NCBI GenBank assembly: GCA_005889345.1 | Contig: VBFR01000183.1 | Span: 1,315-65,314 of the forward strand | DNA from: Chloroflexota bacterium | GTDB lineage: Bacteria > Chloroflexota > Dormibacteria > CF-121 | DNA: 64,000 nt | Direction: 5' to 3' | Shown here: in pieces, positions 13,797 through 53,379 of the stretch | Numbering within the stretch: the first letter of the stretch is position 1 | How the letters are laid out: each line of letters begins with the position of its first letter | Position numbers and translations under genes: made by a program | The notes under the pieces: generated by a model | Seen by the model: the letters and a program-made list of their open reading frames with translations, nothing else | Database searches by the model: none | What the model was told of the DNA's origin: nothing

Positions 13797-15474
13797 CGGT
13801 GGCGACCGGCCCTCGCTGACCTCCGCCGCGGATGTCATCGTCGTCGGCGCGGGACTGGCCGGGCTGGTCGCGACGGCGGAATTGGCCGACGCCGGGCAGC
13901 GGGTCATTCTGGTCGAGCAGGAACCCGAGCCCTGGCTGGGCGGGCAGGCCTTCTGGTCGTTTGGCGGCATCTTTCTCGTCAACTCGCCGGAGCAGCGGCG
14001 GCTCGGAGTTCACGATTCGCATGAGCGGGCGTTGAAGGACTGGATGGTGACGGCCGGATTCGATCGGCCGGAAGACGAGTGGCCGAGGAAGTGGGCCGAG
14101 GCGTACGTGACGTTCGCCGCCGGCGAAAAACGATCGTGGCTGCGTTCCCAGGGCGTCCGCTTCTTTCCCATCGTCGGCTGGGCCGAGCGAGGAGGCTCGC
14201 TACGTGGTGGGCCCGGGAACTCGGTGCCGCGCTTCCATGTGACGTGGGGCACGGGCCCAGGCGTCGTGGCGCCCTTCGAGCGTCGCGTTCGCGAAGCCGT
14301 GGCCCGTGGCCTCGTCACCGTCAAGTTCCGTCATCGCGTCGACGCCCTAACGGTTCGCGGCGGGTCCGTCGATGGCGTGCGTGGCGCCATCCTCGAACCG
14401 AGCGCCGTCGATCGAGGTCGACCGAGTTCGCGGGTGGAGGTCGGGGACTTTGAGCTCAATGCGTCAGCCGTGATCGTGACGTCGGGCGGGCTGGGCGGGA
14501 ACCATGAGCTGGTGCGAAAGAACTGGCCGGCCCGGCTGGGCGATCCGCCACGCGAGATGCTGAGCGGGGTGCCGGCTCATGTCGACGGCCGCATGCTCGG
14601 CATCACGGAAACTGCCGGCGGGACGGTGATCAACCGTGATCGCATGTGGCATTACGTGGAAGGGATCCAGAACTGGAAACCGATCTGGCCGAACCACGGC
14701 ATCCGGATCCTCCCGGGACCCTCGTCCATGTGGTTCGACGCAGCGGGGAATCGCCTGCCCGCGCCGCTCTTTCCCGGGTTCGACACGCTCGGCACGCTCG
14801 AGCACCTGGCGCGAACGGGCTTCGACTATTCGTGGTTTGTGCTGACGCAGCGAATCATCAAGCGCGAGTTCGCGCTTTCCGGGTCCGAGCAGAATCCCGA
14901 CCTGACGAACAAGGACCTTCGCCTGCTGCTGCAGCGGGTCATCTCGAAGTCCGGTCCGGCACCGGTTGAAGCCTTCAAGGAAAGGGGCACCGACTTCGTC
15001 GTCTCGAGCAACCTCGGCGACCTGGTTCGCGGAATGAACGCCATGACCGACGAGCCGCGCCTCGATCCCCTGAAGCTGGAGCGCGAGATCGCCGCGCGTG
15101 ATCGCGAGGTCGGCAACGGGATGACCAAGGACGCGCAGATCATCGCGATCCGTTCGGCGCGACGGTACCTCGGCGACCGGCTGATCCGGGTCGCGACGCC
15201 GCATCGCCTGCTGGATCCGGCGGCCGGCCCGCTGATCGCGGTTCGCCTGCGAATCTTGACGCGCAAGGCGCTGGGCGGCCTTGAGACCGACCTGTCCGGG
15301 CGCGTTCTGCGATCCGACGGAACGCCGCTACCCGGCCTCTATGCGGCGGGTGAGGTTGCCGGCTTCGGCGGAGGAGGGATGCACGGATACCGATCGTTGG
15401 AGGGCACCTTCCTGGGCGGCTGCCTGTTCTCCGGCCGCACCGCCGGCCGGGCCGTCGTGGCGGCTCTCGGCTGA
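13708..15474 (+). CDS. FAD-dependent oxidoreductase (FAD-binding dehydrogenase, COG3573/KsdD-like)
   Basis: Rossmann DVIVVGAGLAGLVATAELADAGQRVILVEQE. The start is uncertain: the track ORF begins at 13627, GTG 13708 is the nearest start upstream of the FAD motif, and it overlaps the upstream gene. Confidence 0.7.
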   Translation: MRTAREPLTGRRFSWRSTRLGASIWTTRVDGGDRPSLTSAADVIVVGAGLAGLVATAELADAGQRVILVEQEPEPWLGGQAFWSFGGIFLVNSPEQRRLGVHDSHERALKDWMVTAGFDRPEDEWPRKWAEAYVTFAAGEKRSWLRSQGVRFFPIVGWAERGGSLRGGPGNSVPRFHVTWGTGPGVVAPFERRVREAVARGLVTVKFRHRVDALTVRGGSVDGVRGAILEPSAVDRGRPSSRVEVGDFELNASAVIVTSGGLGGNHELVRKNWPARLGDPPREMLSGVPAHVDGRMLGITETAGGTVINRDRMWHYVEGIQNWKPIWPNHGIRILPGPSSMWFDAAGNRLPAPLFPGFDTLGTLEHLARTGFDYSWFVLTQRIIKREFALSGSEQNPDLTNKDLRLLLQRVISKSGPAPVEAFKERGTDFVVSSNLGDLVRGMNAMTDEPRLDPLKLEREIAARDREVGNGMTKDAQIIAIRSARRYLGDRLIRVATPHRLLDPAAGPLIAVRLRILTRKALGGLETDLSGRVLRSDGTPLPGLYAAGEVAGFGGGGMHGYRSLEGTFLGGCLFSGRTAGRAVVAALG

Positions 15475-31442: not shown

Positions 31443-31625
31443 AGTATGCAACCCGCCGCGGCGGGCCCGTGATCGGCTCCATCACCACTTGCGAGTGCGA
31501 AATGGTTTGACAAGAGCGATTCTTCCGCCCTATTCTGCGACTGCCGCCAACCGGCTCTTGGGGAGGCGTTGGATGGCGGTGGCGCTGCCGTTCATCTAAT
31601 TTTCATTGCTGAGGAGCCCCAGAAA

Positions 31626-33050
31626 ATGCTGCTTGTGGAAGTCCGCCGCCTCGATATCGCCCCCAACACCGACCAGTTCTGGACCATCGTTTCCCGCATC
31701 AACGGCCCTGAGTTCATGGGCGTTCTCTACCGGGCGCGCGAGGCGATCTTCGACAGCGCCGGGATCAGTTTCACCATCGACCTGCTGAACAAGTTCCTGC
31801 AATTCGACGTCACCAAGAGCTGGTCGTCGGCCGACGAAGGCGAGCTCTTCATGGGTCAGGCGCCGGTCGTCGGCTGGCTGCGTGTCCGTCGGCCGGGCTC
31901 GGCCACCTTGCGCGAGCTCCGCTCCGACGACGTCCACTTCATGGAGCTCGAGCACGCTTCCAAGCCAGCCTTCATCGAAGTCGGCGTCGCCTATCGCGCC
32001 GGGACCGAGAAGATCCGGACCGACTTCCTCAAGCGAGTCCGCACGGCAGCCCAGGAAGCCCTCGGCCAGGAAGTGGGCACACCCTCCTCGTGGCCCGTCC
32101 TGGCTCCGGTCGGCAGCCACAACTTCGACGCGATCCGCAAGTCCCGCCAGTCGATCAACGAGGTCAGCGCCGAAGAAAACCAGGCGATGGGCGCCTTCGC
32201 CTCGCCGGAGATTCGCGCGCTGATCCGGGATCTCGAGCGCGTCGGCTCGCTCACCGTTTCCGACCTCCCCAAGGTCCTCGGCGAAGCGCAGGGTACGGCG
32301 GTGGCCGGCCGCCTCGGGGAGCTCCGCAGTCTCGGCCTGATCCAGTCGGAGTACGTGATCGTGTGCTCCCGGACGGGCAATGCCGTGTTGCGCACCGACG
32401 ATCCCAACAAGCTGCAGAAGATGGCACCGGACTGGATGAAGTGCGCCTGCGGGCGTCCGCTGAACGAAGAGCGGGTGGACCAGGTGATCATGCCGACCGA
32501 CCGGGCCACCGCCCTCAACGACAAGGGCCGCTGGATGACGACCCTGGCGACCGCCATCCTCCCCAAGCTCGGCATCAGCCGCGAGCAGGTCATCATCGAT
32601 TCCAGCCCGGCGGGCACCGACATCGTGCTCGATTTGAGCGGTGACCTCGTCCTCGTGGTGCTCAAGGACCGTGAGTTCAACCTGGCGGATGCGTATGCCT
32701 TCAACGCGAAAGTCTCCCGCATCAAGGCCGCCGAGGGCGTGATCGTCAGCAATGAGGGTCTCTCCGGCGATGCGAAGAAGCTCGTCCAGGAAGAGCTCGG
32801 TCCGCAGCGCGCGCGGATTACGGACCCGTTCCGCATTTCGTTCGTGGAAGGCGTGCAGGGCCTGGAGCACGAGCTGGGCCGCGTCGTGGAGCGACGTCGC
32901 CGGCAATACTTCCTGCGGGCGCTCGGCGATCTGGCCACCATCCAGGGGCTGAACATCGGGCAACTGGCGCTGGCCAAGGTTGAAGCCGGCGGCCGCGCCG
33001 GCAAAGAGGGCGTGGTCGTTGCGGCCGAGGCCGTCGCCGCCGAAGCCTAG
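31626..33050 (+). CDS. hypothetical protein (475 aa): helix-turn-helix-like stretch, CxC element, C-terminal restriction-endonuclease-like (PD-(D/E)xK-type) motif
   Basis: GAGGAG RBS; a possible helix-turn-helix-like stretch LTVSDLPKVLGEAQGTAVAGRLGELRSLGLI (pattern only, no fold call possible); MKCACGRP; TDIVLDLSGDLVLVVLKDRE resembles a D...(D/E)xK nuclease core. I cannot name a family. Confidence 0.55.
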   Translation: MLLVEVRRLDIAPNTDQFWTIVSRINGPEFMGVLYRAREAIFDSAGISFTIDLLNKFLQFDVTKSWSSADEGELFMGQAPVVGWLRVRRPGSATLRELRSDDVHFMELEHASKPAFIEVGVAYRAGTEKIRTDFLKRVRTAAQEALGQEVGTPSSWPVLAPVGSHNFDAIRKSRQSINEVSAEENQAMGAFASPEIRALIRDLERVGSLTVSDLPKVLGEAQGTAVAGRLGELRSLGLIQSEYVIVCSRTGNAVLRTDDPNKLQKMAPDWMKCACGRPLNEERVDQVIMPTDRATALNDKGRWMTTLATAILPKLGISREQVIIDSSPAGTDIVLDLSGDLVLVVLKDREFNLADAYAFNAKVSRIKAAEGVIVSNEGLSGDAKKLVQEELGPQRARITDPFRISFVEGVQGLEHELGRVVERRRRQYFLRALGDLATIQGLNIGQLALAKVEAGGRAGKEGVVVAAEAVAAEA

Positions 33051-33062
33051 TTACGCAGCGTC

Positions 33063-33106
33063 AAACGCGCCGTGGCATCGTCCGGCCACGGCGCGTTTAC
33101 ATTTCT
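33063..33106 (+). terminator. Rho-independent terminator after the hypothetical gene
   Basis: aaacgcgccgtggc-atcgtccg-gccacggcgcgttt hairpin followed by a T-rich tract. Confidence 0.55.
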
Positions 33107-33167
33107 GTCCTGACTAAACTTCGCGTTCACCCGGGAATAGTGCAACGCGGTCGCGTACTGTACGTGT

Positions 33168-33359
33168 ATGCGTATCGGCAGCTTGGTTCTTGGCGTGATT
33201 GCGATCTTTGCCGGTGGCGTCTGGATCTTGCAAGGCGCGGGCGTGCTGCCGGGCAGTTTCATGACGGGCCAGCGGATGTGGCTCGTCATCGGCATCATCG
33301 TCGCGATCGTCGGAGTGGCGCTGGCCTACAACGCGATCCGCCGGCCTGCCCGGCCCTAG
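33168..33359 (+). CDS. small two-TM membrane protein (63 aa)
   Basis: MRIGSLVLGVIAIFAGGVWILQGAG...LVIGIIVAIVGVALAY; sits directly upstream of the Mo-enzyme gene. Confidence 0.45.
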   Translation: MRIGSLVLGVIAIFAGGVWILQGAGVLPGSFMTGQRMWLVIGIIVAIVGVALAYNAIRRPARP

Positions 33360-33363
33360 CCGC

Positions 33364-34791
33364 TTGGTCCGTCAGCGCCCGCTAATCGTCGGCTTGAGTG
33401 CCGGCACGCTGGCGCTCGGGGCGGACTACCTGGCGCACGCGGTGTTCGGGATCCCCCTGCTCCCGGAGCAGGCGGGCTACATCTTGCTGAAGCTGCTGCC
33501 CCTGTCGACGTTTGCGAGCTTGCTGAAGGCGCTCGGCGTTCTCGCCCGGCCGCTACTGCTCGTGGGCGCAACCGTGGTGATTATCGCGGCCTACGGTGCG
33601 GCCTCGATGCTGACGGCCCGAGTGTTCCCGCGCGGCTACGTGCTGGTCCTCACCGGGCTGGCGGCGTTGGTCAGCGCCATCGTCGCGATCGTTGCCTTCT
33701 CGCCGAGTGATTCATGGCCCGGGGCGGTGGTCGAAATCGTGTTGCTCGCCGGAATGGTTGCGTTGGTCGATCGTGCTGTCCGCGGGCTGGCCACCGCCGG
33801 TCCGGTCAACGAAGACCGCCGAATCGTGATGCGCAACATCTTTTATGGTGCGGTCGGCATCGCCCTGCTGGGCATCGGCTACGCGAACGTCCGGCGTTTC
33901 GCCACGGCGCTGGCCATGAAGGAGGGCAGCCGCACGCCGACCGAAATCACGCCGGTCAGCGATTTCTATGTCGTCTCCAAGAACATTAGCGGGGACCCGG
34001 TGGTCGATGCCTCGACCTGGCGTCTCAACCTGCCCGGCCGGTCGCTCACCTACGCGGAGTTGCTCGCCTTGCCGTCGCACCAGTTGGAGCTGACGCTGGA
34101 GTGCATTAGCAACGAGATTGGCGGGACGTTGATCAGCAATGGCAGCTGGAAGGGGCCGCGGGTGAGCGATGTGCTGGCGCTGACCTCGGTGCCGTCGAAT
34201 GCAACCTGGATGTTGATGGAAAGCGCCGACGGCTATACCGAGAGCTTTCAATTGCGCGATCTGACACCGGATCATCTGCTCGCCACCCATCTCAACGGCT
34301 CGGCCCTGTCCTCGATGCACGGCTTCCCGGCGCGCTTCATCTTTCCTGGCCGCTACGGCATGAAGCAGCCAAAGTGGGTCACGCGCGTCGGTTTTTCCGC
34401 GAGCGATAAGCCCGGCTATTGGGAAAACAACGGCTGGGATGAACGAGCGATCGTCAAGACGATGTCACGCATCGACCGGCCCACGGATGGTGCCGCTCTG
34501 GCGGCTGGAGCGATCCAGTTCGGCGGCATCGCCTTCGCCGGCTCCCGCCGGATCAGCGGCGTGGAGCTGAGTTGGGATGGTGGCCGCTCCTGGCAGCCCG
34601 CCGACCTGCAGCCTGAGTTCTCCCCGTACGCGTGGCGCTTCTGGCAGCTCAGCACCAGCATCGCCGCCGGACATTACAACGTCAAAGTGCGGGCCCGCGA
34701 CGGTGAGGGAACCTTACAGACGTCGAAGTCGGCGGCGACCCTGCCCAACGGGGCGGACGGCTACCACAGCATCACGCTCGATCTCGCGTAA
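33364..34791 (+). CDS. membrane-anchored sulfite-oxidase-family molybdopterin oxidoreductase (N-terminal polytopic TM domain + Moco domain + Ig-like dimerisation domain)
   Basis: Moco Cys motif LECISNEIGG and HGFPARFIFPGRYGMKQPKWVTRV, with 4-5 N-terminal TM helices. Confidence 0.75.
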   Translation: MVRQRPLIVGLSAGTLALGADYLAHAVFGIPLLPEQAGYILLKLLPLSTFASLLKALGVLARPLLLVGATVVIIAAYGAASMLTARVFPRGYVLVLTGLAALVSAIVAIVAFSPSDSWPGAVVEIVLLAGMVALVDRAVRGLATAGPVNEDRRIVMRNIFYGAVGIALLGIGYANVRRFATALAMKEGSRTPTEITPVSDFYVVSKNISGDPVVDASTWRLNLPGRSLTYAELLALPSHQLELTLECISNEIGGTLISNGSWKGPRVSDVLALTSVPSNATWMLMESADGYTESFQLRDLTPDHLLATHLNGSALSSMHGFPARFIFPGRYGMKQPKWVTRVGFSASDKPGYWENNGWDERAIVKTMSRIDRPTDGAALAAGAIQFGGIAFAGSRRISGVELSWDGGRSWQPADLQPEFSPYAWRFWQLSTSIAAGHYNVKVRARDGEGTLQTSKSAATLPNGADGYHSITLDLA

Positions 34792-34908
34792 CGTTCTCAG
34801 AGCCTTCTCAGGATGCCTTCAGCCACGTGGCGCGGGCGCCCGTCTACCGTAAGGTTGAGGTCGCCGGATTCCATGAGCCAACGCGTTGTAACTGGCAGGG
34901 AGAGGAAC

Positions 34909-35082
34909 ATGTCCTCGAACGCGACGCTGAGGTGGGCGTCGGTGCTGGGCACGCTGTTGCTGGCCTTGCTCTCAGGTGGTGTCGTCGCCACGTCACCCAA
35001 ACCTGCACAGGCGCCACTGCATCCGGCGGTAACCGTGCTGCCCAGTGATGCTGCGGTCCACAGTGAAAGCCATGTCTCCTGA
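34909..35082 (+). CDS. possible small secreted peptide (57 aa), speculative
   Basis: Signal peptide MSSNATLRWASVLGTLLLALLSGGVVATSPKPAQA plus a 22-aa tail; overlaps the apbE start by about 11 nt. Confidence 0.25.
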   Translation: MSSNATLRWASVLGTLLLALLSGGVVATSPKPAQAPLHPAVTVLPSDAAVHSESHVS

Positions 35083-35950
35083 ACTGACGACCCGCCACTT
35101 CGACGCGCTTGGCTCCACGTGCGAGTTGCTGAGTGTCGAGAGCGGGCCGGCCGCGCTCGAACGTTGTGAACAAAGGATTCGTGACGCGGAGGCCCGCTTC
35201 ACCCGTTTCCTTCGTGATAGCGAGCTGGCCGGACTGAATGCGAGCGACGGCCGCTACGTGCCGGTGAGCCCGGAAATGTTTGCCATGCTGGAGGCGGCGC
35301 TGTGGGCGTACGAGGAAAGCGAAGGGCTCGTCAACGCCGCGGTGCTCCCGGCGCTGCTGGCGGCCGGGTACGATCGCCCCTTCCGGCAAGGTCTGTCGGA
35401 GCCGTCCTGCCTTTACCCGACGCAATTGCCACCGCTTCCCGATGTGCTTCTTCTGGACCAGGTCACGCGCTCGGCGGCGCTCGCTCCAGGGGCTTCGCTC
35501 GACCTGGGTGGAATCGCGAAGGGCGCGCTGGCCGACCTTCTGATCGATGAGCTCGGTGAGAATGCGGTCTGCAATCTCGGCGGCGATCTCCGCCTGCGCG
35601 GCGCCGGTCCCGAAGGGGACGGCTGGCATATCGGACTCTGCGATGGCACGCTCGTCGCGCTGCGCGACGGTGCCGTCTGCACCAGCGGCATCAGCAAGCG
35701 GCGCTGGGGGCACTCGATGCATCACCTGATCGATCCGCGCACCGGGATGCCGGCGAAGACCGACCTTGCGGAAGTCTCCGTCGTCACGGACAGTGCCTTG
35801 CGGGGTGAGGTCTACGCCAAGAGTGCGATTCTCCTGGGAGCAGCGATGGGCATCGCCTTCCTCGAAGCCCGCGGCGTGCTCTACACCGTCGTGCCGGCCG
35901 AAGGGGTGGCTGCCGGCGCCGGCCCAAGTGAGCTTCCGGCGGCGGCGTGA
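35072..35950 (+). CDS. apbE: FAD:protein FMN transferase ApbE
   Basis: RHFDALGSTCELL N-terminus and the LDLGGIAKG motif. No signal peptide is visible. Confidence 0.8.
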   Translation: MSPELTTRHFDALGSTCELLSVESGPAALERCEQRIRDAEARFTRFLRDSELAGLNASDGRYVPVSPEMFAMLEAALWAYEESEGLVNAAVLPALLAAGYDRPFRQGLSEPSCLYPTQLPPLPDVLLLDQVTRSAALAPGASLDLGGIAKGALADLLIDELGENAVCNLGGDLRLRGAGPEGDGWHIGLCDGTLVALRDGAVCTSGISKRRWGHSMHHLIDPRTGMPAKTDLAEVSVVTDSALRGEVYAKSAILLGAAMGIAFLEARGVLYTVVPAEGVAAGAGPSELPAAA

Positions 35951-36492
35951 CGCTTGACCAGCTGCTCTGGCTGACCTCGCGCGCGGCGGCCCTGACCGCC
36001 TTCTTCGTTCTCGCGGCCGCCCTGGTGACCGGCCAGGCGCTGCGCAGCGCCATGTTCGAGGGAGCGATGCGCAATCGCGACCTGTCGAATCTGCACCGCT
36101 TCCTTACCGTCTGCTGGGTGCCGTTCGTCGGCCTGCACGTGCTGGCGATGACACTCGACGCCGTCGCACGGATCAGCCCGATCGACCTCGTGATCCCCTT
36201 CCATGTCTCGTATGCCTCACTGGCGATCGGCTTCGGCACCATTGGATTCGATCTCCTGCTGATCGTGACCGTCACCGGCTACTTGAGGCGGCACCTCGAC
36301 CCCCTCGCCTGGCGCTGGCTCCACCGGCTCTCCTATCCGATGTTCGGCGCGTTTGCGCTCCATGCCCTGCTGTCCGGGACCGACTTCGCGCGCCCGCTCG
36401 TGCTCGCGCCGGCCGCCGGCGTGGTCGCCTTCATCATCATCGTGAGCCTGGCGCGCCTCGCCTTCGGGCGGATGGAAACGACACAGCGCTAG
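35947..36492 (+). CDS. MsrQ/YedZ-like ferric-reductase-type transmembrane heme protein
   Basis: Six TM segments with paired His (HRFLTVCWVPFVGLHVL; WRWLHRLSYPMFGAFALHAL), the same spacing as E. coli MsrQ. Overlaps the apbE stop (ATGA). Confidence 0.6.
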   Translation: MTLDQLLWLTSRAAALTAFFVLAAALVTGQALRSAMFEGAMRNRDLSNLHRFLTVCWVPFVGLHVLAMTLDAVARISPIDLVIPFHVSYASLAIGFGTIGFDLLLIVTVTGYLRRHLDPLAWRWLHRLSYPMFGAFALHALLSGTDFARPLVLAPAAGVVAFIIIVSLARLAFGRMETTQR

Positions 36493-36505
36493 ACTCGTCG
36501 GCACC

Positions 36506-37273
36506 ATGGATGCCTGGGAGCGAGCGATCGCCTTCATGCGCACCGTCGACGAGCGCTCAGCCGAGTCCGTCGTGCCCTTTCGCTGGGGCCGCGCCCTGAT
36601 CAATCAACGGCTGAATCGGGTTCCCGATCTCAACTTCCTGATCGCAGACCGGGTGGAGGATGCGGGCGCGTCCGCCCTGAACGGAGAGGCGGAACGGATC
36701 CAGGGCGCCGTGGGCCTCCAATATCGACGCGTTAACGTTGATGACCGCGCGGCTGCGGAACGCTTCTCGGCTGGTTTCCGAACACTCGGGTACACGCCCG
36801 AGCGCTTTGTGATCATGGCGCACCGCCGGCGGCCGGACCACGAGGTCGATACGGCTACCGTGAAGGAGGTCGACTGGGAACTGATGCGCCCGGCCCGCGA
36901 GCGCGAGATCGCCAGCCAGCCCTGGGGAGCTGATCCACGCGTCGTGCAGCAGCTGCTCGCCAAGCACCAGTTGACCGCCCAGGGCACTCGTACCCGGTAC
37001 TTTGCGGCGCTGCTCGAGGGCAACGTCATCTCGTCGTGCGAGCTTCGAAGCGAGGGTGACACGGCGCAGGTCGAGACGGTGGAGACGCTGCCGGAATTCC
37101 GGCAGCGCGGCCTCTCGCGGGCGGTGGTTAGCGCCGCGCTGCATGCTGCGGCGGGATATGCCTTCGTCTTCCTGGTGACGGACGCGGAAGACTGGCCCCA
37201 GCACTACTATCGCCGGCTCGGCTTCGAACCCGTCGGCATCGAGTCGAGGTTTCTCCGAATCACCGATAGCTGA
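36506..37273 (+). CDS. GNAT family N-acetyltransferase
   Basis: ETLPEFRQRGLSRAVVSAALHAA acetyl-CoA-binding motif. Confidence 0.7.
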   Translation: MDAWERAIAFMRTVDERSAESVVPFRWGRALINQRLNRVPDLNFLIADRVEDAGASALNGEAERIQGAVGLQYRRVNVDDRAAAERFSAGFRTLGYTPERFVIMAHRRRPDHEVDTATVKEVDWELMRPAREREIASQPWGADPRVVQQLLAKHQLTAQGTRTRYFAALLEGNVISSCELRSEGDTAQVETVETLPEFRQRGLSRAVVSAALHAAAGYAFVFLVTDAEDWPQHYYRRLGFEPVGIESRFLRITDS

Positions 37274-47943: not shown

Positions 47944-50900
47944 TCAGCCGCTCGGGACTTCCTCTTCGACCTCGTCGCGGCTGGACCCGTTGGCCTGCGC
48001 CTCCTCAGCGGAGGCAGGAACGAGCGAGGGGCCAGGCAACCGGATGATGGTCCAGTCGTCGGCCTTCTCGGCGCGGTCGGCGAGCGCCTCGTCCTTCGAG
48101 AACAAGATCACCTGGTGGTCGAGGCGGCCGAGTTCGTTCATCGCCGCGGTCAGACGGCGCCGGTCGGCGTGAACCAGCGCTTCGTCCAGCAGCAGAGGCG
48201 GTGGCTCCGCGTTTCCGCCGATAATGCGCGCCAGCGCCAGCCGCTCGAGCAGGTAGATCAGGGAGCGCGTGCCCAGGCTGAGGTTGTCGACATCCTTATA
48301 AGTCCGCTGGTCCTGCGTGCGGACCTGCAACGCGAGGTCTTCGCCGATGCGCACATCGCGATAGCGGCCGTTCGTGATGGGGGAGAGCTGACCCTGGAGT
48401 TGCGACTTCAGCCTGGGGATCACGGCCCGCCGCACCGATTTCGCCGCGGCTTCGAGCGTTTCGATGGCGAGGTCGTAGGCGTGGGCCTCGGCCTCGAGCT
48501 CCTGCAGCTGTTCGCGGGCGGTTGCGATCTCCTCCTCGAGGGTGGCCACGTCCCCGATCTGGGTCAGCCGATCGTTCAGTAACTCCTCCGCCCGCGCCCG
48601 TTCCTCCTGGGCGCGCTCCTTCGTACCGCGGTGCTGGTCGCGCTGCCGTTCGAGCTCGGCGAGTGGCAACGCCGCGAATTGCGCCACCGCGGCAGGGTCC
48701 ACGCTCCGGCTGGTCTCCTCGAGCTGGCGCGTCAGGTCGTCGACGAGCTGTCGCAGCGACGCCCCTTCGTCGTTGGCAGCGGTCCCCCGTTGCGCTTCCA
48801 GCTCGGCGAGGCGAGCGCTCGATGCGCGGTAGGCCTCGGCATGACCGACGCCGGCCTCCCAGGCCTGGGATGCGCGCTCCATGTCGGTGTCGTCGATGCC
48901 GGCCGGCGTGTAGATGGCCGCGAGCTGACGAGCGTAGTCATCGGCTTTGGTGCGCTCGGCGACCGAGCGCTGTCCCGGCGCCCGGAGTTGCTCCAATTGC
49001 GCGTCGAGCTGCTCGATCCGGGTGCGGACCTGCTGGGCGGTGCGCGCGGCCTCGCAACTCGCGATGAAGTCGCGGGCGGCACCGAGCGCCTCCCGCCGGT
49101 CGAAGCCCAGCTGGTCGAGCAGGCTGTGCAGCCGCTGCCGAAGCGACTCGCGTCGCTGGTCCAGCTCGGATTCGGCACGGGACGCATCCTGTGACCGCTC
49201 GCTGGCGGCGTTCCAGGCGAGCGTGTCCTGGGCGAGCGACTCGATCTCACGCGCCGTCTCGTCGACGGCCTCTTCGGTGGGCGCGGGCTGCGGAAGTCCC
49301 CACGACCCGACCAGCTCGCGAAGGCTGCGACCCGCAATCTGGGCCCGCTCCTCCAGCTCGGTAGCCTGGCGGTCGAGTTCGAGACGGGTGGCGTCGTAGC
49401 GCACCTTCTGCAGGTGCTCGACCAGGGCCTGCTGGAGTTCCGCTGAGCTTCGCACCCCCCACGGCTGCAGGATCTCGCGCCGTTTGATGCGAGCCTCGTC
49501 TTTCGCCCGCAAGCGGCGGTCGACCTCACGAACCGCGGCCCCACGGACCCAGATGCCGATGCCCGTCGAGAGGACCCCCATGCCGAGCAGGAAGAACGCG
49601 GCGCCGGCCAGCAGAATCGTGCCGTTGCTCTGGAGCGCGAGGAAGGCGACCAGGATCGCGAGTGCTGTCAGCAGAAGGCCGCCCAGCATCGCGCCGAGGA
49701 AGGTGCGCTGCCGGCTGCGAGCCCGCTCCGCCATCGCTTCCTCGCGTCGCATCGCCTCCTCGGCTTGCTGGCCGGTCTTGATGACGTCGGGGACTTCCTT
49801 GTAGCGGGCGATGTCGTGCTTGAGCTGCTCGAGGCGTGGTGGGAGCTCGGCGCCGGCGCGGCGGCGTGCCTCGAGGGCGACGTTGTGGCGCTCCCGCCAT
49901 TCGGAGAAGACGCGCTGGAACTCCATCTGGCGCGCGGGCCAGTCCAGGTTGTTGCCGATCAGGCCCGGGTGCCGCTCCGCGATCCGGCGAGCCTCCTCCG
50001 CCGCGGTCTGGGCGCGGAGGTGGACGTCGGGCGCCTGGGTATCGGCGACATTCAGGGTGGAGAGAAGCTCACGAACCGTGGGTTCCTGGGCGAGGGCGGC
50101 GTCGTCGATGCCACGGGCTCGCGTTTCGTGCCCCTGTGCCTCCGTTTCCAGCTTCTGGCGCTCGGCGTCCAGCTGCTGCACCTGGGCCGTGCTGTCGGTG
50201 GCGCGACGTTCGAAGTCGGCCTGGGTCTCGCGAGTAGCCCGCAGGTGGCTCCGCAGGTCCTGAACCTCTGCCTGGCGGTCGAGCGGGAACATCGCGAATC
50301 GGGTGTGCTGCTCCTGCCGGCCGCGTTCCTCCGCGATCGCCTGCTCCAATGCGTCGACCCGCTCCAGCCGGTGACGCGCATCCTGCAGCCGGGATGCCAG
50401 CAGGGCGGCCTCGAGCGTTTGGACGATGCCCAGCTCGGCTTCGGTGAGCGCCGAAACGGTCTCCCGCTTCTGGGCGAGCTCATCGACCGCGGCGCGAGCC
50501 TGCCGCGCGGCGGCGAGCTGTCGCTCCAGCTCTGTCAGGCGAGCCTCGAGATCGTGCAACGGGCCGGTCCGCCCGCGTGGTTTGCCGATTCGATGGGTCC
50601 GTTCCTGGCGCAACCGGTCGAGAACCTTCTGCGCGGTACGGTCGGGATGCGCCGAATCCGCAAGGGCGATGATCGCCTCCTTGATGGTGCCGGCGTCTTC
50701 CAGGCGCAGCACCTCGCTGCGCGAAATGCACGCGGTGTTGGTATAGATATCGCGGCTGACGCCGAGCAGCTGCCGTCCCACCTGCAATCCGCCCGACGCA
50801 TCGTGGTCGAAGCGGTCGCCGAGCTCGGCACCGGTGCTGATGTCGAAGACGCGAACCGTCTCGGCGTCCAGATCGCGCTCCACGCGGAGCTGCGTCCCGT

Positions 50901-51153
50901 CCTCGAGCACGACGTCGAGGACCAGCCCGAAGTTGCCGCCCTGCCACGGGCGCCAGCGGTCGGCGCGCTCCACCAGCGCCGAATGGGCGCGATCGGCGGA
51001 CTGCAGTCCATAGAGGCCGGTCACGATGGCCTCCTGCAGCGTCGACTTGCCGGCCTCATTGGGTCCGACGACGAGGTTCATCGTCGGCCCGAAGTGCAGC
51101 TCCATGCCGGAAAGCGTGCCGAAGCCCTCGATCTCGATCCGGGTTAAGCGCAC
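47944..51153 (-). CDS. SbcC/Rad50-like AAA ATPase with central transmembrane helices (YhaN/COG4717-like)
   Basis: N-terminal Walker A VVGPNEAGKST, long coiled coils, two or three TM helices (LLLTALAILVAFLAL; LLGMGVLSTGIGIWV), and a C-terminal signature/Walker B region (LLLDEALVHAD). Confidence 0.8.
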   Translation of the reverse strand: MRLTRIEIEGFGTLSGMELHFGPTMNLVVGPNEAGKSTLQEAIVTGLYGLQSADRAHSALVERADRWRPWQGGNFGLVLDVVLEDGTQLRVERDLDAETVRVFDISTGAELGDRFDHDASGGLQVGRQLLGVSRDIYTNTACISRSEVLRLEDAGTIKEAIIALADSAHPDRTAQKVLDRLRQERTHRIGKPRGRTGPLHDLEARLTELERQLAAARQARAAVDELAQKRETVSALTEAELGIVQTLEAALLASRLQDARHRLERVDALEQAIAEERGRQEQHTRFAMFPLDRQAEVQDLRSHLRATRETQADFERRATDSTAQVQQLDAERQKLETEAQGHETRARGIDDAALAQEPTVRELLSTLNVADTQAPDVHLRAQTAAEEARRIAERHPGLIGNNLDWPARQMEFQRVFSEWRERHNVALEARRRAGAELPPRLEQLKHDIARYKEVPDVIKTGQQAEEAMRREEAMAERARSRQRTFLGAMLGGLLLTALAILVAFLALQSNGTILLAGAAFFLLGMGVLSTGIGIWVRGAAVREVDRRLRAKDEARIKRREILQPWGVRSSAELQQALVEHLQKVRYDATRLELDRQATELEERAQIAGRSLRELVGSWGLPQPAPTEEAVDETAREIESLAQDTLAWNAASERSQDASRAESELDQRRESLRQRLHSLLDQLGFDRREALGAARDFIASCEAARTAQQVRTRIEQLDAQLEQLRAPGQRSVAERTKADDYARQLAAIYTPAGIDDTDMERASQAWEAGVGHAEAYRASSARLAELEAQRGTAANDEGASLRQLVDDLTRQLEETSRSVDPAAVAQFAALPLAELERQRDQHRGTKERAQEERARAEELLNDRLTQIGDVATLEEEIATAREQLQELEAEAHAYDLAIETLEAAAKSVRRAVIPRLKSQLQGQLSPITNGRYRDVRIGEDLALQVRTQDQRTYKDVDNLSLGTRSLIYLLERLALARIIGGNAEPPPLLLDEALVHADRRRLTAAMNELGRLDHQVILFSKDEALADRAEKADDWTIIRLPGPSLVPASAEEAQANGSSRDEVEEEVPSG

Positions 51154-51183
51154 GCTGGCCTCACCACGGCCGCCAGGCTGGCG

Positions 51184-52278
51184 TCATTCCTCGAAGGCAT
51201 CGAGGGCGAGCTGCAACGCGCGGCCGACCGCCTGCTCCTCCTGGCGCGACCCCTGCTTGTGGTCAACCAGCTTGCGCACCATTTCGCCCCGACTGGTGAA
51301 CTCCTGCGCGGCGGCCTCGAGGTCGTGCGACACGCGCGACTGGTCGCGAAACTCGAGATAGGCGAAGCCATCACTGCACTCCCGCGAGAGCACCTGCGGA
51401 TCCAGGATCAGCGAATGGGCGCGCTCGCCGGTCAGCGTGGCACGGATGACGGCGCCATCGAGGTGTTTCTCCTCGCGCATCGCTTCGACCGCGTCGCGAA
51501 CGTGATCGATGCTCGTCATGCCGCTGACGTCGATCGTTTCCTGGGCGAACTGCCGCTGGTTGATGTCTTCCAGCAACACCTGGAGGCCGCCATCGTCGCC
51601 GATCGTCAGCAGCGCCGTGCAATGACGTCCGGATTCATTCCACCCGAGCGGCTCCGGGCTGCCGGGATAGGTGATCGACTCCGACCTCCGGGCGTCGTGA
51701 TAGTGGCCGAGCAGCGCGTGACGGAAGCCGGCCTCCTGGACCTGGGCGGGCAGGATGGGCTTGTAGGGGGTCACGTCCTGCGGGACCTGGCTCATGTCCG
51801 AGGCATGGAGCAGGAGGAGGTGCGTGCCGTCCTCGCGCCGGGCGAAATCACGCAGCGGCGCCTCCGGCACGTCCGATCGCATGAAACCCGCGGTCCAGAT
51901 CTCGACGTTCGCATAGCGGTAGGGTCGCAGATCCTCGTGCGTCGCGACCGTGACATTGTCAGGCCAGCGCAGGTATCGGTATGGTGAGCTCGGCACGGCC
52001 GGATCGGCGTGGCCGGGGGCGATCAGGACCGGGAGCCCGGCGTCGCCCAGGGTCTGGACGATGAAGCTTGCAGTGTCGCGCGTGACGTGATCGTGCTCAA
52101 AGAGATCGCCACCGCAGGTGAGCACGTCGGCCTGAGCCTCCCGAGCGCGTTCGACGATCCGTTGAAGGGCCGCCCGAAGATCCTCGCGGCGTCGTTGGGC
52201 GCCGACGCCATAGAGGCGCTCACTCGCGAAGGATCGATCGAGATGCAGGTCAGCGAAATGGAGCAGGCGAAGGGCCAC
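51184..52278 (-). CDS. SbcD/Mre11-like metallophosphoesterase (YhaO-like DNA repair exonuclease)
   Basis: LHFADLHLD...GGDLFEH...calcineurin-like phosphoesterase motifs; sits immediately upstream of the ATPase gene. Confidence 0.8.
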   Translation of the reverse strand: MALRLLHFADLHLDRSFASERLYGVGAQRRREDLRAALQRIVERAREAQADVLTCGGDLFEHDHVTRDTASFIVQTLGDAGLPVLIAPGHADPAVPSSPYRYLRWPDNVTVATHEDLRPYRYANVEIWTAGFMRSDVPEAPLRDFARREDGTHLLLLHASDMSQVPQDVTPYKPILPAQVQEAGFRHALLGHYHDARRSESITYPGSPEPLGWNESGRHCTALLTIGDDGGLQVLLEDINQRQFAQETIDVSGMTSIDHVRDAVEAMREEKHLDGAVIRATLTGERAHSLILDPQVLSRECSDGFAYLEFRDQSRVSHDLEAAAQEFTSRGEMVRKLVDHKQGSRQEEQAVGRALQLALDAFEE

Positions 52279-52416
52279 AAATCCCCCGTAACCACGCGAA
52301 TTGTGCCTGGCGCGATGGCATAAGCAGCGCGAAAGCAGCGCCCATTATAAAGGTTGCGCTGAATTTGTTCCGAATCAGCCGGCGCCGCGATAACAGCATC
52401 TAGACTGAGGGACGAA

Positions 52417-53379
52417 GTGGGCTCGTTCGAGAAGGGGGATCGCGGGGCCCGGATCCTCAAGATCCAGACGCTGCTCCAGGGCAATCCCCACGGTTTGACG
52501 ACCGGCGAGATCGCGCGCCGCAGCGGCGTGAATCCGCGCACCACCTATCGCGACATTCGGGCGCTCGAAGCGATGAACGTGCCGGTCTACGAGGACAACG
52601 GCCGGATCGCGATCGACCCGAACTACTTCGTAGCGCCGGTCAAGTTCACCTTGCGCGAGGCGATGGCGCTCCTCATGGGCGTTCGCCTGATGCACCGGCA
52701 TCGCGACCAGGCGGATCCGGACGTCGCCGACGCCTTCACCAAGCTGGCGGCGGTCCTGCCCGCGCCGGTCGCGGAGTACGTGCACGCCACGGTTCGTCAG
52801 ATGGCCGATCGTCCGTCCAACCCGACGTACTCGCGCGTCCTCCAGACGGTCGCGCTCAGCTGGGCGGGGCACAGGGCGGTGCGCATCTGGTACCCGAGCG
52901 CGAACCACGAGGTGAAGCCGCGCGAGATCGAACCGTATTTTCTCGAGCCCTCGCTGATCGGGCACAGCAGCTACGTGGTGGCGCGCGATCGCGGACTGCG
53001 GGAGATGCGGACCTTCAAGCTGGAACGGATCACGCGGGCCGAGCCAATGTCCGAGACCTATCAGATCCCGCCTGAGTTCGAGGTCAACAAGTACCTGGCC
53101 GGAGCCTGGGGCATCTACCACTCCGGCGAGCCGGTAGAGGTCAGACTGCGCTTCTATCCACCGGCGGCGGCTCGCGTGAAGGAATCGATCTGGCATCCAT
53201 CGCAGAAGCTCAGCGATGGGCCGAGGGGCTCGGTCAACATGACGGTGACGGTAACCGGGACGCTCGAGATCACCCCGTGGATCCTGGGGTGGGGCGACGC
53301 CGTCGAAGTGCTGGCGCCCGCGGACCTGCGCAAGAAGATCAACGAGGTGGGCACGAAAATGGCCTCCCGCAACAAGTAA
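52417..53379 (+). CDS. HTH-WYL-domain transcriptional regulator (PafBC/YafY-like)
   Basis: N-terminal HTH ILKIQTLLQGNPHGLTTGEIARRSGVNPRTTYRDIRAL, and a WYL region AVRIWYPSANHEVKPREIEPYFL. Confidence 0.8.
   Translation: MGSFEKGDRGARILKIQTLLQGNPHGLTTGEIARRSGVNPRTTYRDIRALEAMNVPVYEDNGRIAIDPNYFVAPVKFTLREAMALLMGVRLMHRHRDQADPDVADAFTKLAAVLPAPVAEYVHATVRQMADRPSNPTYSRVLQTVALSWAGHRAVRIWYPSANHEVKPREIEPYFLEPSLIGHSSYVVARDRGLREMRTFKLERITRAEPMSETYQIPPEFEVNKYLAGAWGIYHSGEPVEVRLRFYPPAAARVKESIWHPSQKLSDGPRGSVNMTVTVTGTLEITPWILGWGDAVEVLAPADLRKKINEVGTKMASRNK

Follow-up and report, generated by a model that had tools for sequence, protein, structure and literature searches.

A membrane-anchored sulfite-oxidase-family molybdoenzyme gene followed by a clade-specific p57-apbE-p181 cassette in a Candidatus Dormibacterota genome

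The window analysed here, a 64,000-nt stretch of a soil Candidatus Dormibacterota genome, contains two adjacent gene sets on the + strand: p63 with the gene for a Moco enzyme, and p57-apbE-p181 (the cassette). The 5' boundary of the unit is an intrinsic terminator (33063-33098, + strand; 14-bp stem with 10 G-C pairs, 8-nt loop, T-rich tail) that closes the upstream gene for a 473-aa protein (p473). Four of the open reading frames, those of p63, the Moco enzyme, apbE and p181, had been noted in a sequence-only reading of this DNA; their positions and common strand were confirmed, as were the component identities (SO-family Moco enzyme with a membrane domain, ApbE-family protein, ferric-reductase/MsrQ-superfamily haem protein). 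The fifth, p57, which fills the apparent gap between the Moco gene and apbE, had been overlooked. GC3 values of 0.78-0.89 and dN/dS ratios of 0.07-0.31 against five relatives, found across all locus genes, establish that these genes are real. Purifying selection acts on every one of them, most strongly on apbE and p181, and Pfam gave strong matches for the Moco enzyme and ApbE.

The first gene, p63 (33168-33359, + strand), encodes a 63-aa product with two hydrophobic, transmembrane (TM) segments, as described earlier; 4 nt separate its stop codon from the start codon of the Moco gene. Its dN/dS is 0.16-0.25; family searches gave no significant match. The gene adjoins the Moco gene in all close relatives, cassette-less ones included, and stands beside it also in the distant locus L027.

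The Moco gene (33364-34791, + strand, TTG start) encodes a 475-aa protein that matches PF00174 over residues 212-353 (1.3e-33) and PF03404 (4e-7). The motif LECISNE occupies residues 245-251; its Cys247 (34102-34104) is invariant in 33 homologues, and an HGxPxR motif is also present. Residues 1 to ~185 are helical and membrane-embedded, with five TM helices, so that both the Cys ligand and the N-terminal polytopic membrane domain proposed earlier stand. The AF2 model (pLDDT 87) likewise has five TM helices, its helices spanning residues 5-28, 33-44, 47-87, 91-112, 115-144 and 147-186. A twin-arginine pair, R152-R153 (33817-33822), lies immediately ahead of the last TM helix (R152 invariant, R153 at least 90% conserved in the 33 homologues); this helix is among the least hydrophobic (1.65 versus up to 2.75), and the translation shows the R/K-rich NVRRFATALAMKEGSR after it. 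The lone His of the membrane domain, H25, is non-conserved, and no conserved His was found in this domain across the 33 homologues. Model and sequence predict a five-TMD, twin-arginine Sec/Tat arrangement, with the Moco domain facing outward, and from the precedent of Sco3746 we infer a Tat/Sec export route. The membrane domain that had been pointed out in the Mo enzyme is thus present, and it is not new, the topology being of the Sco3746 type.

The C-terminal part of the protein is a dimerisation/Ig-like domain. PDB sequence and fold matches of the Mo domain are to SO, SorA, SorT and SoxC. An MsrP-like Mo domain was rejected, since NCBIfam (SorT/SoxC/SO 3e-26 versus MsrP 1.4e-5) and Foldseek (SO/SorA 1e-24 versus YedY 3e-9) both favour the SorT/SoxC/SO type; because of these scores the analogy with MsrP/MsrQ drawn in the sequence-only reading is weak. 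Judged from sequence and predicted structure, the Mo domain resembles those of SO, SorA and SorT and comes with a dimerisation domain.

The interval from the Moco gene to p57 yielded no terminator and holds conserved elements (34795-34856, + strand), namely direct repeats TCTCAG-N5-TCTCAG-N7-TCAG at 34795-34822 and the block CTACCGTAAGGTT at 34844-34856, upstream of p57, all kept in 15 distinct relatives. The repeat pair occurs once in the window; 0.25 matches are expected by chance, and at least one appeared in 22 of 100 shuffles. An Rfam search of these elements gave no match. The repeats and block are probably an operator/promoter for the cassette, and their conservation suggests that the cassette is regulated separately from the Moco gene.

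A Shine-Dalgarno-like GGGAGAGG (34898-34905) precedes p57 (34909-35082, + strand), which has always 57 codons and the same stop in 14 distinct relatives, with dN/dS of 0.07-0.31. The last 11 nt of p57, stop included, are also the first 11 nt of apbE in another frame, and all 70 database p57 clusters fall within 51-70 aa. Residues 9-30 are hydrophobic and signal-anchor-like, and the Ala-Pro at the sole AxA-like site argues against cleavage of p57 by signal peptidase.

The ApbE open reading frame (35045-35950) matches PF02424 at 8.8e-45 and contains LDLGGIAKG, bearing out the earlier identification. The real start is the ATG at 35072 (apbE, 35072-35950, + strand, 292 aa); upstream of it, frame 2 is closed by a TAA at 35030 and shows no coding selection. 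PDB matches with alignments to ApbE/Ftp/FmnB were found at 1e-18, and dN/dS is 0.09-0.12. In the alignment to E. coli Ftp, F46 falls at the flavin-stacking position, and the metal-site-1 ligands D/D/T are replaced by E246/A249/K250; H217/H218 belong to HHLIDP, the motif of the catalytic His, and orthologues also keep RGEVYAKSA. The flavin-transfer residues are therefore kept as regards the catalytic His and the flavin-stacking aromatic, not as regards metal site 1. As encoded, the protein is leaderless and predicted to be cytoplasmic; the earlier remark that no signal peptide is visible was correct. The motifs Dxx[ST]GA[ST] and [ST]GA[ST] are absent from all six cluster proteins, the former also from the six frames of the window and within ±6-7 kb in relatives, and no FMN-bind domain was found in the cluster. 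With no flavin-acceptor motif, a leaderless ApbE and replaced metal-site-1 ligands, the flavinylated extracytoplasmic module suggested earlier did not hold up.

The last gene, p181 (35947-36492, + strand, 181 aa), has a GTG start (35947-35949) that overlaps the apbE TGA stop (35948-35950); the coupling noted earlier as ATGA exists and reads GTGA here, the first codon being ATG in some relatives. Pfam gave no match to the window's own p181 even at E<=10, while 12 of 19 orthologues matched PF01794 (best 9.8e-8) and 12 of 19 weakly matched DUF4405. H50, H64, H126 and H139 are invariant in the 19 orthologues, with spacings of 14 and 13, as in NOX2; dN/dS is 0.08-0.19. Weak matches to the C-terminus of MamZ (0.004) and to SpNOX 8qt6 (0.059) were found. 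The alignment with E. coli MsrQ (E 0.17) is not statistically significant; in it, H64, H126 and H139 fall on the His of LHL, QLHNF and IHYLW. The model has five helices at low, unreliable confidence (pLDDT 46), and the loop charges fit an N-out/C-in five-helix topology if helices are taken from this model and the sequence. We class p181 as a predicted five-helix, four-histidine cytochrome b of the ferric-reductase-domain/MsrQ superfamily, borderline to PF01794. The MsrQ-like ferric reductase with His pairs described earlier is thus upheld by the four invariant His and the orthologues, not by a Pfam match of the window protein; among the families expected at the locus, PF00174 and PF02424 were found directly and PF01794 only through p181 orthologues.

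The cassette was found in the loci of 25 relatives, all from one Dormibacterota clade. Its three genes are present or absent together, and the 11-nt (p57/apbE) and 4-nt (apbE/p181) start/stop overlaps are conserved; it behaves as one clade-specific indel cassette. In every cassette-bearing locus (the window and the 25 relatives) it lies directly 3' of the Moco gene on the same strand; these loci hold 14 distinct p57 sequences, and the placement is the same for the most divergent p57 (65-68% identity). No instance away from the Moco gene occurred in any locus found. The cassette is missing in the syntenic relatives L021, L022 and L023 (60-71% Moco identity), which keep amidase-p473-p63-Moco and most of the downstream GNAT/YtfJ/aminotransferase/EamA/VTT genes; in an NJ tree built without bootstrapping, L022 seems to branch from within the cassette-bearing lineages. 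Because these three relatives keep the Moco gene and not the cassette, the Mo enzyme presumably works without it. Only two Moco residues (117 and 120) separate cassette-plus from cassette-minus proteins. An ApbE or p181-like gene was present in none of 67 more distant homologous Moco loci, and some Thermomicrobium loci have a CxxCH ORF in the cassette's stead. The gene order is thus conserved in one clade, and not in the three syntenic relatives or the 67 distant loci. The surrounding genes are unrelated housekeeping genes in a conserved mix, so that adjacency by itself carries little weight.

The reading that we tentatively favour, at somewhat short of an even chance, is that p181 is a wire joining the cytoplasmic/quinone side to the outward Mo centre, with ApbE supplying flavin inside. 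Sec would insert the first four helices of the Moco enzyme and Tat the fifth, so that the catalytic domain, already folded and loaded with Moco, would reach the outer face. The cassette would be a translationally coupled accessory unit, probably with its own regulated promoter, in which p57 would be a small single-pass membrane protein, ApbE a cytoplasmic FAD-binding/flavin-transfer protein with an altered metal site, and p181 a minimal di-haem b cytochrome with five helices, of the ferric-reductase/MsrQ/NOX type. In its role as an electron wire across the membrane, p181 would hold the inner haem by H50/H126 and the outer haem by H64/H139, connecting a cytoplasmic or quinone-side donor or acceptor with the outward-facing Mo centre, and ApbE may supply or attach flavin on its cytoplasmic side or act on a partner encoded elsewhere. 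The constant adjacency of Moco gene and cassette, with no terminator between, speaks for such a wire. Against it stand the cassette-less relatives and distant loci (0/67), the repeats suggesting separate regulation, the changed ApbE metal ligands, the lack of an acceptor motif, the unreliable p181 model, the non-significant similarity to MsrQ and the resemblance of the Mo domain to dehydrogenases (SorA/SorT/SO); moreover, ferric-reductase-domain proteins usually carry electrons outward.

It is a realistic possibility, if on balance a doubtful one, that the cassette is an independent 'MsrQ-like' electron-transfer/flavin system (e.g., an assimilatory metal reductase) that lies beside the Moco gene by chance and is functionally unlinked to it. 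A chance insertion fits an indel unit inside conserved synteny of unrelated genes, a Moco gene unchanged with or without it, a Moco family that at large never has it (0 of 67 distant loci), and conserved direct repeats with a promoter-like block 5' of p57. In addition, Méheust et al. (PMC8238504) connect MsrQ-like clusters with the reduction of iron or with outward electron transfer driven by NAD(P)H, and not with molybdoenzymes ('molybd' has 0 occurrences), and PF00174 was not found in three supplementary files of that study (Méheust et al., 2021). However, in the loci found the cassette is never anywhere but immediately 3' of the Moco gene, on its strand, no terminator intervenes, and the typical partners (VIT1 iron transporter, NAD-binding domain, FMN-bind gene) are lacking in the cluster.

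Two further alternatives concern ApbE. A +1 frameshift at the p57 stop (UCC/UCG UGA, as in prfB) could fuse the p57 signal-anchor to ApbE, giving a membrane-tethered extracytoplasmic flavin transferase with a canonical target elsewhere: p57 offers the N-terminal hydrophobic leader that ApbE lacks, the 11-nt overlap ATGTCTC[C/G]TGA, out of frame, keeps its position in all 14 distinct sequences, the shift would yield ...HVS-ELTTRHF..., only 7 residues ahead of 'ALGST', where the ApbE fold begins, and most bacterial ApbEs are secreted or lipid-anchored (PMC12052999). We nevertheless find this quite unlikely, as the putative slip codon varies (UCC/UCG) and re-pairs poorly in the +1 frame, no Shine-Dalgarno-like stimulator lies upstream, apbE carries a conserved ATG of its own, placed as in classic termination-reinitiation, in-frame fusion to ApbE occurs in none of the 70 p57 clusters, and cytosolic ApbEs are known, e.g., in Klebsiella pneumoniae (PMC12052999). 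It is improbable, too, that the ApbE homologue has lost flavin-transferase function and acts as a stable FAD-binding subunit docked on the cytoplasmic p181 face (NOX-like, flavin to two haems) or as an FAD pyrophosphatase supplying FMN. The ligands of metal site 1, critical for FMN-transferase activity, are indeed now E246/A249/K250, conserved under strong purifying selection, no acceptor motif is nearby, apbE is tightly coupled to p181 in translation, E. coli MsrQ, by its annotation a flavocytochrome, is fed by a cytosolic flavin reductase, and ApbE binds FAD with the isoalloxazine ring exposed (PMC12052999). However, the catalytic His is kept, as is the transferase-type aromatic (F46 versus Y60 in E. 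coli and N55 in T. pallidum), a position where an aromatic marks FAD-binding transferases, not pyrophosphatases, and there is no NAD(P)H-binding domain. Glu is still able to bind Mg2+, and no ApbE is known to be a redox subunit.

The locus is a variant of an 'MsrQ-like' flavinylation cluster beside a polytopic Moco enzyme; its components belong to known types, no flavin-acceptor protein is recognisable in the cassette, and a functional link between cassette and Moco enzyme is plausible. A PF01794 gene beside apbE is the operational definition of the 'MsrQ-like' flavinylation-associated cluster (Méheust et al., 2021, eLife, PMC8238504), so apbE with the PF01794-type p181 belongs, as the sequence-only reading had it, to an ApbE-associated kind of system. 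With these clusters and the apbE-associated DUF4405 cytochromes (mSystems 2024, PMC11334425) the locus shares an apbE adjoining a small di-haem PF01794/DUF4405-like membrane cytochrome; it differs in having no FMN-binding domain gene, flavinylation motif, NAD-binding domain or VIT1, in an ApbE with an altered metal site and no signal peptide, and in its molybdoenzyme neighbour, not described in PMC8238504. The cytosolic ApbE of K. pneumoniae (PMC12052999) likewise has no signal peptide and acts in the cytoplasm, as is predicted here, but its target is defined, being a soluble fumarate reductase that bears the canonical motif, whereas no such target lies near the window ApbE.

SorA, SorT, SoxC and the animal and plant sulfite oxidases share the two-domain fold (Moco and dimerisation), the Cys ligand and HGxPxR with the window enzyme, which is, in contrast, membrane-anchored, with no cytochrome c partner encoded at the locus. 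All NCBIfam scores are far under the equivalog cut-offs (92 versus 420-570); in the alignment with chicken SO, R138 corresponds to K206, and R190, W204 and Y322 fall in segments missing from the window protein. E. coli MsrP/MsrQ (YedY/YedZ) likewise combine an SO-family Mo enzyme outside the membrane with a same-strand ferric-reductase-domain haem b protein, three p181 His aligning with MsrQ His in the non-significant alignment. Unlike soluble MsrP, however, the window Mo enzyme is membrane-anchored and SorT/SO-like, with a dimerisation domain (MsrP 24.6 bits versus a cut-off of 207); p181, compared with MsrQ, has five helices and four His (two haems) at a similarity of E 0.17, and the Moco gene and p181 are separated by p57 and apbE.

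Polytopic Moco proteins of the Sco3746 type, reported in Chloroflexi and related phyla, depend on both Sec and Tat for their insertion (Tooke et al., 2017, eLife, PMC5449189). Sco3746 shares with the window protein five TM helices, the hallmark twin-arginine ahead of a weakly hydrophobic TMD5 followed by positive charges (PMC5449189), and a C-terminal extracytoplasmic SO-family Moco domain. It differs in its TMD2-4, whose conserved His are predicted ligands of two b haems in an MsrQ-like fusion (PMC5449189); the window protein has none of these haem histidines, only the non-conserved H25, and here, in one clade only, a separate di-haem protein, p181, is encoded nearby. If the wire reading is true, p181 and the Moco enzyme would form a 'split' counterpart of both MsrQ-MsrP and the haem-Moco fusion Sco3746.

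The locus comprises five genes on the + strand. The four open reading frames (ORFs) recognized in the sequence-only reading were recovered at the same positions: p63 (33168-33359), which encodes a 63-aa protein with two hydrophobic segments and ends 4 nt upstream of the next start; the gene for a 475-aa membrane-anchored molybdoenzyme, hereafter the Moco protein (33364-34791); an apbE homolog (35072-35950); and p181 (35947-36492), named, as are the other small genes, by the length of its product. The overlap reported between the last two exists (4 nt), but reads GTGA and not ATGA, and the 254-nt "gap" that had been left between the ORFs of the Moco protein and ApbE holds a fifth gene, p57 (34909-35082). 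Purifying selection acts on all five genes: in comparisons with five relatives, dN/dS was 0.16-0.25 for p63, 0.17-0.19 for the Moco gene, 0.07-0.31 for p57, 0.09-0.12 for apbE and 0.08-0.19 for p181. GC3 of the genes is 0.78-0.89, and the G+C content of the window is 64-70%. The nearest relatives of the window are soil MAGs labelled Candidatus Dormibacteraeota/Dormibacterota, or "Chloroflexi bacterium" in older records. Ordinary housekeeping genes surround the locus (amidase, 2-oxoacid dehydrogenase E1/E2, CysRS, histidine kinase, GNAT, YtfJ), along with genes for a class-V aminotransferase, EamA, DUF885 and a subtilase. Elsewhere in the window, the segments 47944-52344 (- strand) and 52363-53379 (+ strand) encode an SbcCD-like pair, a 1079-aa AAA/SMC-N ATPase adjoining a metallophosphoesterase, and beside it a divergently oriented HTH-WYL-WCX regulator.

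The Moco protein contains the molybdoenzyme domain PF00174 (1.3e-33, residues 212-353) and the Mo-co dimerization domain PF03404 (4e-7). The Cys ligand noticed earlier in the motif LECISNE is present, and this residue, Cys247, is invariant in 33 homologs. By sequence and predicted fold, the catalytic part groups with sulfite oxidases (SO) and sulfite dehydrogenases rather than with MsrP. NCBIfam models gave 3e-26 (92 bits) for SorT/SoxC versus 1.4e-5 (24.6 bits; cut-off 207) for MsrP, and phmmer against PDB matched chicken SO at ~6e-21. Foldseek with the AF2 model (pLDDT 87) yielded ~4e-24 for SO/SorA/SorT/SoxC over ~340 columns and 3e-9 for YedY/MsrP over 181 columns, while BLASTP aligned E. 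coli MsrP over a 133-residue segment with 24% identity. The protein shares the Moco and dimerization domains and the Cys ligand with SO, SorA, SorT and SoxC, but stays below the equivalog level, its SO-family NCBIfam scores of 80-92 bits being far under the curated cut-offs of 420-600. We refrain from naming it a sulfite oxidase, because the four sulfite-binding residues of chicken SO are replaced or missing: in the phmmer alignment R138 corresponds to K206, and the Moco protein lacks the segments that hold R190, W204 and Y322, with loop positions uncertain since this alignment is local.

The enzyme carries its own membrane domain, as had been proposed: AF2 and hydropathy place five transmembrane (TM) helices in the N-terminal ~185 residues. 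This architecture is already known from the class of Sco3746, a polytopic Moco protein in which Sec inserts TMD1-4, and Tat inserts TMD5 along with the Moco domain in its folded state (Tooke et al., eLife 2017, PMC5449189). Both proteins have five TMDs, a C-terminal Moco domain, and a conserved twin-arginine before a weakly hydrophobic TMD5 followed by positive charges. In the Moco protein the twin-arginine motif DRRIVMR (R152 invariant and R153 at least 90% conserved in the 33 homologs) lies on a positively charged loop that leads directly into the last helix. This helix is one of the least hydrophobic, and the positively charged NVRRFATALAMKEGSR comes after it. From these Sco3746-type features an outward-facing catalytic domain is predicted; by analogy, Sec/Tat insertion would place the Mo domain outside. 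The two differ in that Sco3746 has conserved His in TMD2-4, predicted ligands of two b hemes (PMC5449189), which are absent from the Moco protein and its family. Residues 1-190 contain a single, non-conserved His, H25, and no conserved His column was found in the N-terminal half of the family alignment.

The Moco protein has a very large, uncharacterized family behind it: an exhaustive search with the whole 475-aa query gave 907 clusters (50% identity) at E<1e-30, many of the listed representatives aligning at full length and others over the Moco domain only. Full-length members are polytopic, twin-arginine, non-heme SO-type molybdoenzymes, and the fetched loci span Dormibacterota, Chloroflexota, Acidobacteriota, Armatimonadota and other phyla. 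In three Thermomicrobium-type loci (L069, L071 and L080), ORFs of 129-171 aa with one CxxCH lie upstream of a polytopic Moco homolog, which hints at a SorAB-like cytochrome c partner in this lineage.

The gene p63 accompanies the Moco gene even in L027, a locus of a Chloroflexota MAG, where its homolog (L027:9220-9462) is found ~800 nt downstream of the Moco gene (38-39% identical); this family of molybdoenzymes may have the p63 protein as a small subunit. Pfam searches at E<=10 gave nothing usable for p63, for the N-terminal domain of the Moco protein, or for p181 of the window. Upstream of p63-Moco lies p473 (31569-33050, likely start ~31629), encoding a soluble protein of ~473 aa that had no match in Pfam, PDB or PADLOC, apart from a weak resemblance to an ArsR-type HTH (E 0.03). 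All close relatives have this gene directly in front of p63-Moco, even those without the p57-apbE-p181 genes. A strong terminator on the + strand (33063-33098) separates p473 from p63, and for this reason p473 was judged to be outside the unit.

Conservation of gene order, a condition set by the sequence-only reading, holds in close relatives and breaks down beyond them. The order p473-p63-Moco-p57-apbE-p181 is identical in every close relative examined (JGI, ENA and NCBI assemblies), down to the most divergent p57 homologs (65-68% identity). Loci L021, L022 and L023 (60-71% Moco identity) lack exactly p57-apbE-p181 and keep amidase-p473-p63-Moco and most of the downstream GNAT/YtfJ/aminotransferase/EamA/VTT genes; the order is likewise not conserved in 67 distant Moco loci. 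As p57, apbE and p181 are present or absent together, they form one accessory cassette, and p63-Moco is an older, self-sufficient unit. The cassette is also missing at this site from the 1.16-Mb contig CAWCIV010000001.1. L022 clusters with a cassette-bearing lineage in an unbootstrapped neighbor-joining tree of Moco and p473, which suggests at least one cassette loss. The Moco-p57-apbE-p181 genes, 88% identical to those of the window, are also present on a contig labelled "Candidatus Binatus sp." (L025, DATNNA010000019.1), which is probably a mis-binned Dormibacterota contig.

Directly after the Moco stop and before p57, within 34795-34856, there are direct repeats of the form TCTCAG-N5-TCTCAG-N7-TCAG, followed by the block CTACCGTAAGGTT; both are conserved across 15 distinct relatives. 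Nowhere else in the window does the repeat pair occur, although at least one chance match arose in 22 of 100 shuffles. Rfam detected nothing in the whole window at the gathering threshold or in 32900-36700 at E<=5; hence the conserved intergenic blocks are not a known riboswitch. No terminator was detected between the Moco stop and p57. The repeats and block probably constitute an operator/promoter of the cassette, and transcription of the Moco gene may also run on into it; they could possibly combine a regulator-binding site with a promoter for p57-apbE-p181.

The first cassette gene, p57, is preceded by GGGAGAGG and encodes a signal-anchor-like peptide (MSSNATLRWASVLGTLLLALLSGGVVATSPKP...). 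Its sequence suggests an uncleaved single-pass membrane protein, uncleaved because Ala-Pro stands at the only AxA-like site. In 14 of 14 distinct sequences p57 has 57 codons and ends at the same TGA within ATGTCTC[C/G]TGA. The apbE frame (frame 2) is closed by TAA at 35030, and substitutions at 35045-35071 are synonymous in the p57 frame; the start of apbE is therefore ATG 35072. GTG 35045 was rejected as an alternative start, since the changes ahead of ATG 35072 are non-synonymous when read in the apbE frame. The identical arrangement in JGI, ENA and NCBI assemblies, and dN/dS of ~0.1, also ruled out that apbE is a pseudogene or the product of a sequencing frameshift. In one MAG (L020:8568-9544, VBEE01000050.1), a frameshift or assembly error has split apbE into two overlapping ORFs between intact neighbors. 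The p57/apbE overlap is read most simply as termination-reinitiation coupling.

The third cassette protein, p181, had been compared to MsrQ and ferric reductases. Scanned with Pfam, 12 of 19 orthologs match PF01794 (best 9.8e-8); the window copy has no Pfam match, and the family assignment rests on the orthologs. Orthologs 81-94% identical carry precomputed PF01794 matches and JGI names such as "YedZ"; scanned singly, 12 of 19 also match DUF4405 weakly. Four histidines, H50, H64, H126 and H139, are invariant. Their spacings, 14 and 13 residues, match those of the two heme-ligand pairs of NOX2. Weak similarity was found to the ferric-reductase-like C-terminus of MamZ (0.004), and the PDB profile search returned only the TM domain of the Streptococcus NOX (SpNOX; E 0.059). 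The hhalign comparison with E. coli MsrQ was not significant (E 0.17), with H64, H126 and H139 facing the His of "LHL", "QLHNF" and "IHYLW". The AF2 model, built on a shallow alignment, is poor (pLDDT 46) and has five helices. Loop charges fit an N-out/C-in topology, which would bring H50 and H126 near the cytoplasmic face and H64 and H139 near the outer face. By these sequence features p181 is assigned to the ferric-reductase-domain superfamily as a minimal di-heme cytochrome b, which does not imply that it is orthologous to MsrQ.

The ApbE homolog matches PF02424 at 8.8e-45 and solved ApbE, Ftp and FmnB structures at ~1e-18, and was also aligned to E. coli Ftp. Its flavin-transfer residues, on which the earlier assignment depended, are partly kept. 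The histidine of HHLIDP, the general base (PMC12052999), is retained, and a flavin-stacking aromatic, Phe46, stands at the position of E. coli Y60 and T. pallidum N55, which is Tyr in FAD-binding transferases and Asn in the T. pallidum pyrophosphatase (PMC4767422). Unlike ApbE/Ftp FMN transferases, with which it shares the PF02424 fold, the His and the aromatic, the protein has E246/A249/K250 at metal site 1 in place of the E. coli ligands D280, D283 and T284 (Table 3 in PMC4767422); the T. pallidum and Listeria structures have Asp and Thr aligned there. Among Ftp residues, only metal-ligating ones were found critical for FMN transfer (PMC4767422). The segment RGEVYAKSA is conserved in 5 of 5 ApbE orthologs retrieved. 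ApbE, which begins with MSPELTTRHF, has 7 residues ahead of the first strand of its fold and no leader, in agreement with the earlier remark that a signal peptide was not visible; all 120 listed orthologs are 263-302 aa long.

The proposal of a flavinylated extracytoplasmic module did not hold: ApbE has no leader, and neither an acceptor motif nor an FMN-bind gene was found in the cluster. None of the six proteins searched contains the canonical motif Dxx[ST]GA[ST] (PMC12052999) or the looser [ST]GA[ST], and the former does not occur in any of the six reading frames of the 64-kb window. A relaxed search within ±6-7 kb of 25 related loci gave a spurious antisense ORF and no credible one, and no cluster protein has an FMN_bind Pfam domain. 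The window also encodes a 644-aa FAD_binding_2 flavoprotein of the fumarate-reductase/succinate-dehydrogenase type (13540-15474, + strand), with ~97 residues preceding the domain; as it lacks the flavinylation motif, it is not an obvious ApbE target.

We tentatively favor, with somewhat less than even confidence, a model in which p181 serves the adjacent Mo enzyme. It would act as a two-heme trans-membrane wire and form with the enzyme a split analog of MsrQ-MsrP or of the Sco3746 fusion, with ApbE acting on the cytoplasmic side. The rather doubtful, still serious competitor is a cassette that works as an independent MsrQ-like electron/flavin system and happens to lie beside the Moco gene, in which case the finding is one of two ordinary neighbors. 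The constant gene order in cassette-bearing genomes has to be set beside the following: in the 67 more distant Moco loci, which span many phyla and were collected with an alignment of 9 sequences as the query, no ApbE or p181-like gene occurs within 7 kb and the clustered neighbors include no shared or conserved redox partner; and Moco proteins with and without the cassette differ consistently at residues 117 and 120 only.

Other readings concern ApbE itself. It is improbable, though worth stating, that the leaderless ApbE, with Lys and Glu for the metal ligands Thr and Asp, works in the cytoplasm within a membrane complex with p57 and p181 and performs a non-canonical flavin attachment or serves as an FAD entry subunit. 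As an attachment enzyme it would flavinylate p181, p57, or the Tat-substrate Mo enzyme before export; as a subunit it would open a minimal three-part NOX-like chain leading from flavin through two hemes to the extracytoplasmic Mo center. Each version, if true, would give the ApbE family a new role or mode of action. That ApbE is simply a non-transferase flavin subunit, with the metal site altered and the catalytic His and the aromatic still in place, we consider decidedly unlikely. A prfB-like +1 frameshift would provide ApbE with the signal anchor of p57 and hence with export, but the slippery codon is not conserved and there is no SD-like stimulator, so that this too is given little credence; all 70 p57 database clusters are stand-alone proteins of 51-70 aa, none of them fused in frame to ApbE.

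Membrane cytochromes linked to ApbE have recently been recognized as one way in which bacteria move electrons out of the cell. Because Dormibacterota are uncultured and abundant in soil, any redox function defined for this locus would be of ecological interest. The comparison with MsrP/MsrQ is an analogy only, since the catalytic subunit is not an MsrP ortholog. In the classification of flavinylation-associated clusters, an "MsrQ-like" cluster is a PF01794 gene together with apbE or an FMN-bind gene (Méheust et al., 2021, PMC8238504). The cassette agrees with this operational definition, with apbE overlapping p181 by 4 nt and PF01794 present in the orthologs, but lacks the FMN-binding acceptor and the extracytosolic ApbE, the features that give the class its mechanism; PF00174 and Dormibacter entries are absent from three supplementary files of that study. 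The locus is unusual in the conserved overlap of p57 with apbE, in an ApbE that is leaderless and has E/A/K in place of its metal ligands, and in the missing acceptor. With its altered site and obligatory p57, the cassette does not fit the rule of an exported ApbE paired with a Dxx[ST]GA[ST] acceptor, and could thereby reveal a new substrate or role.
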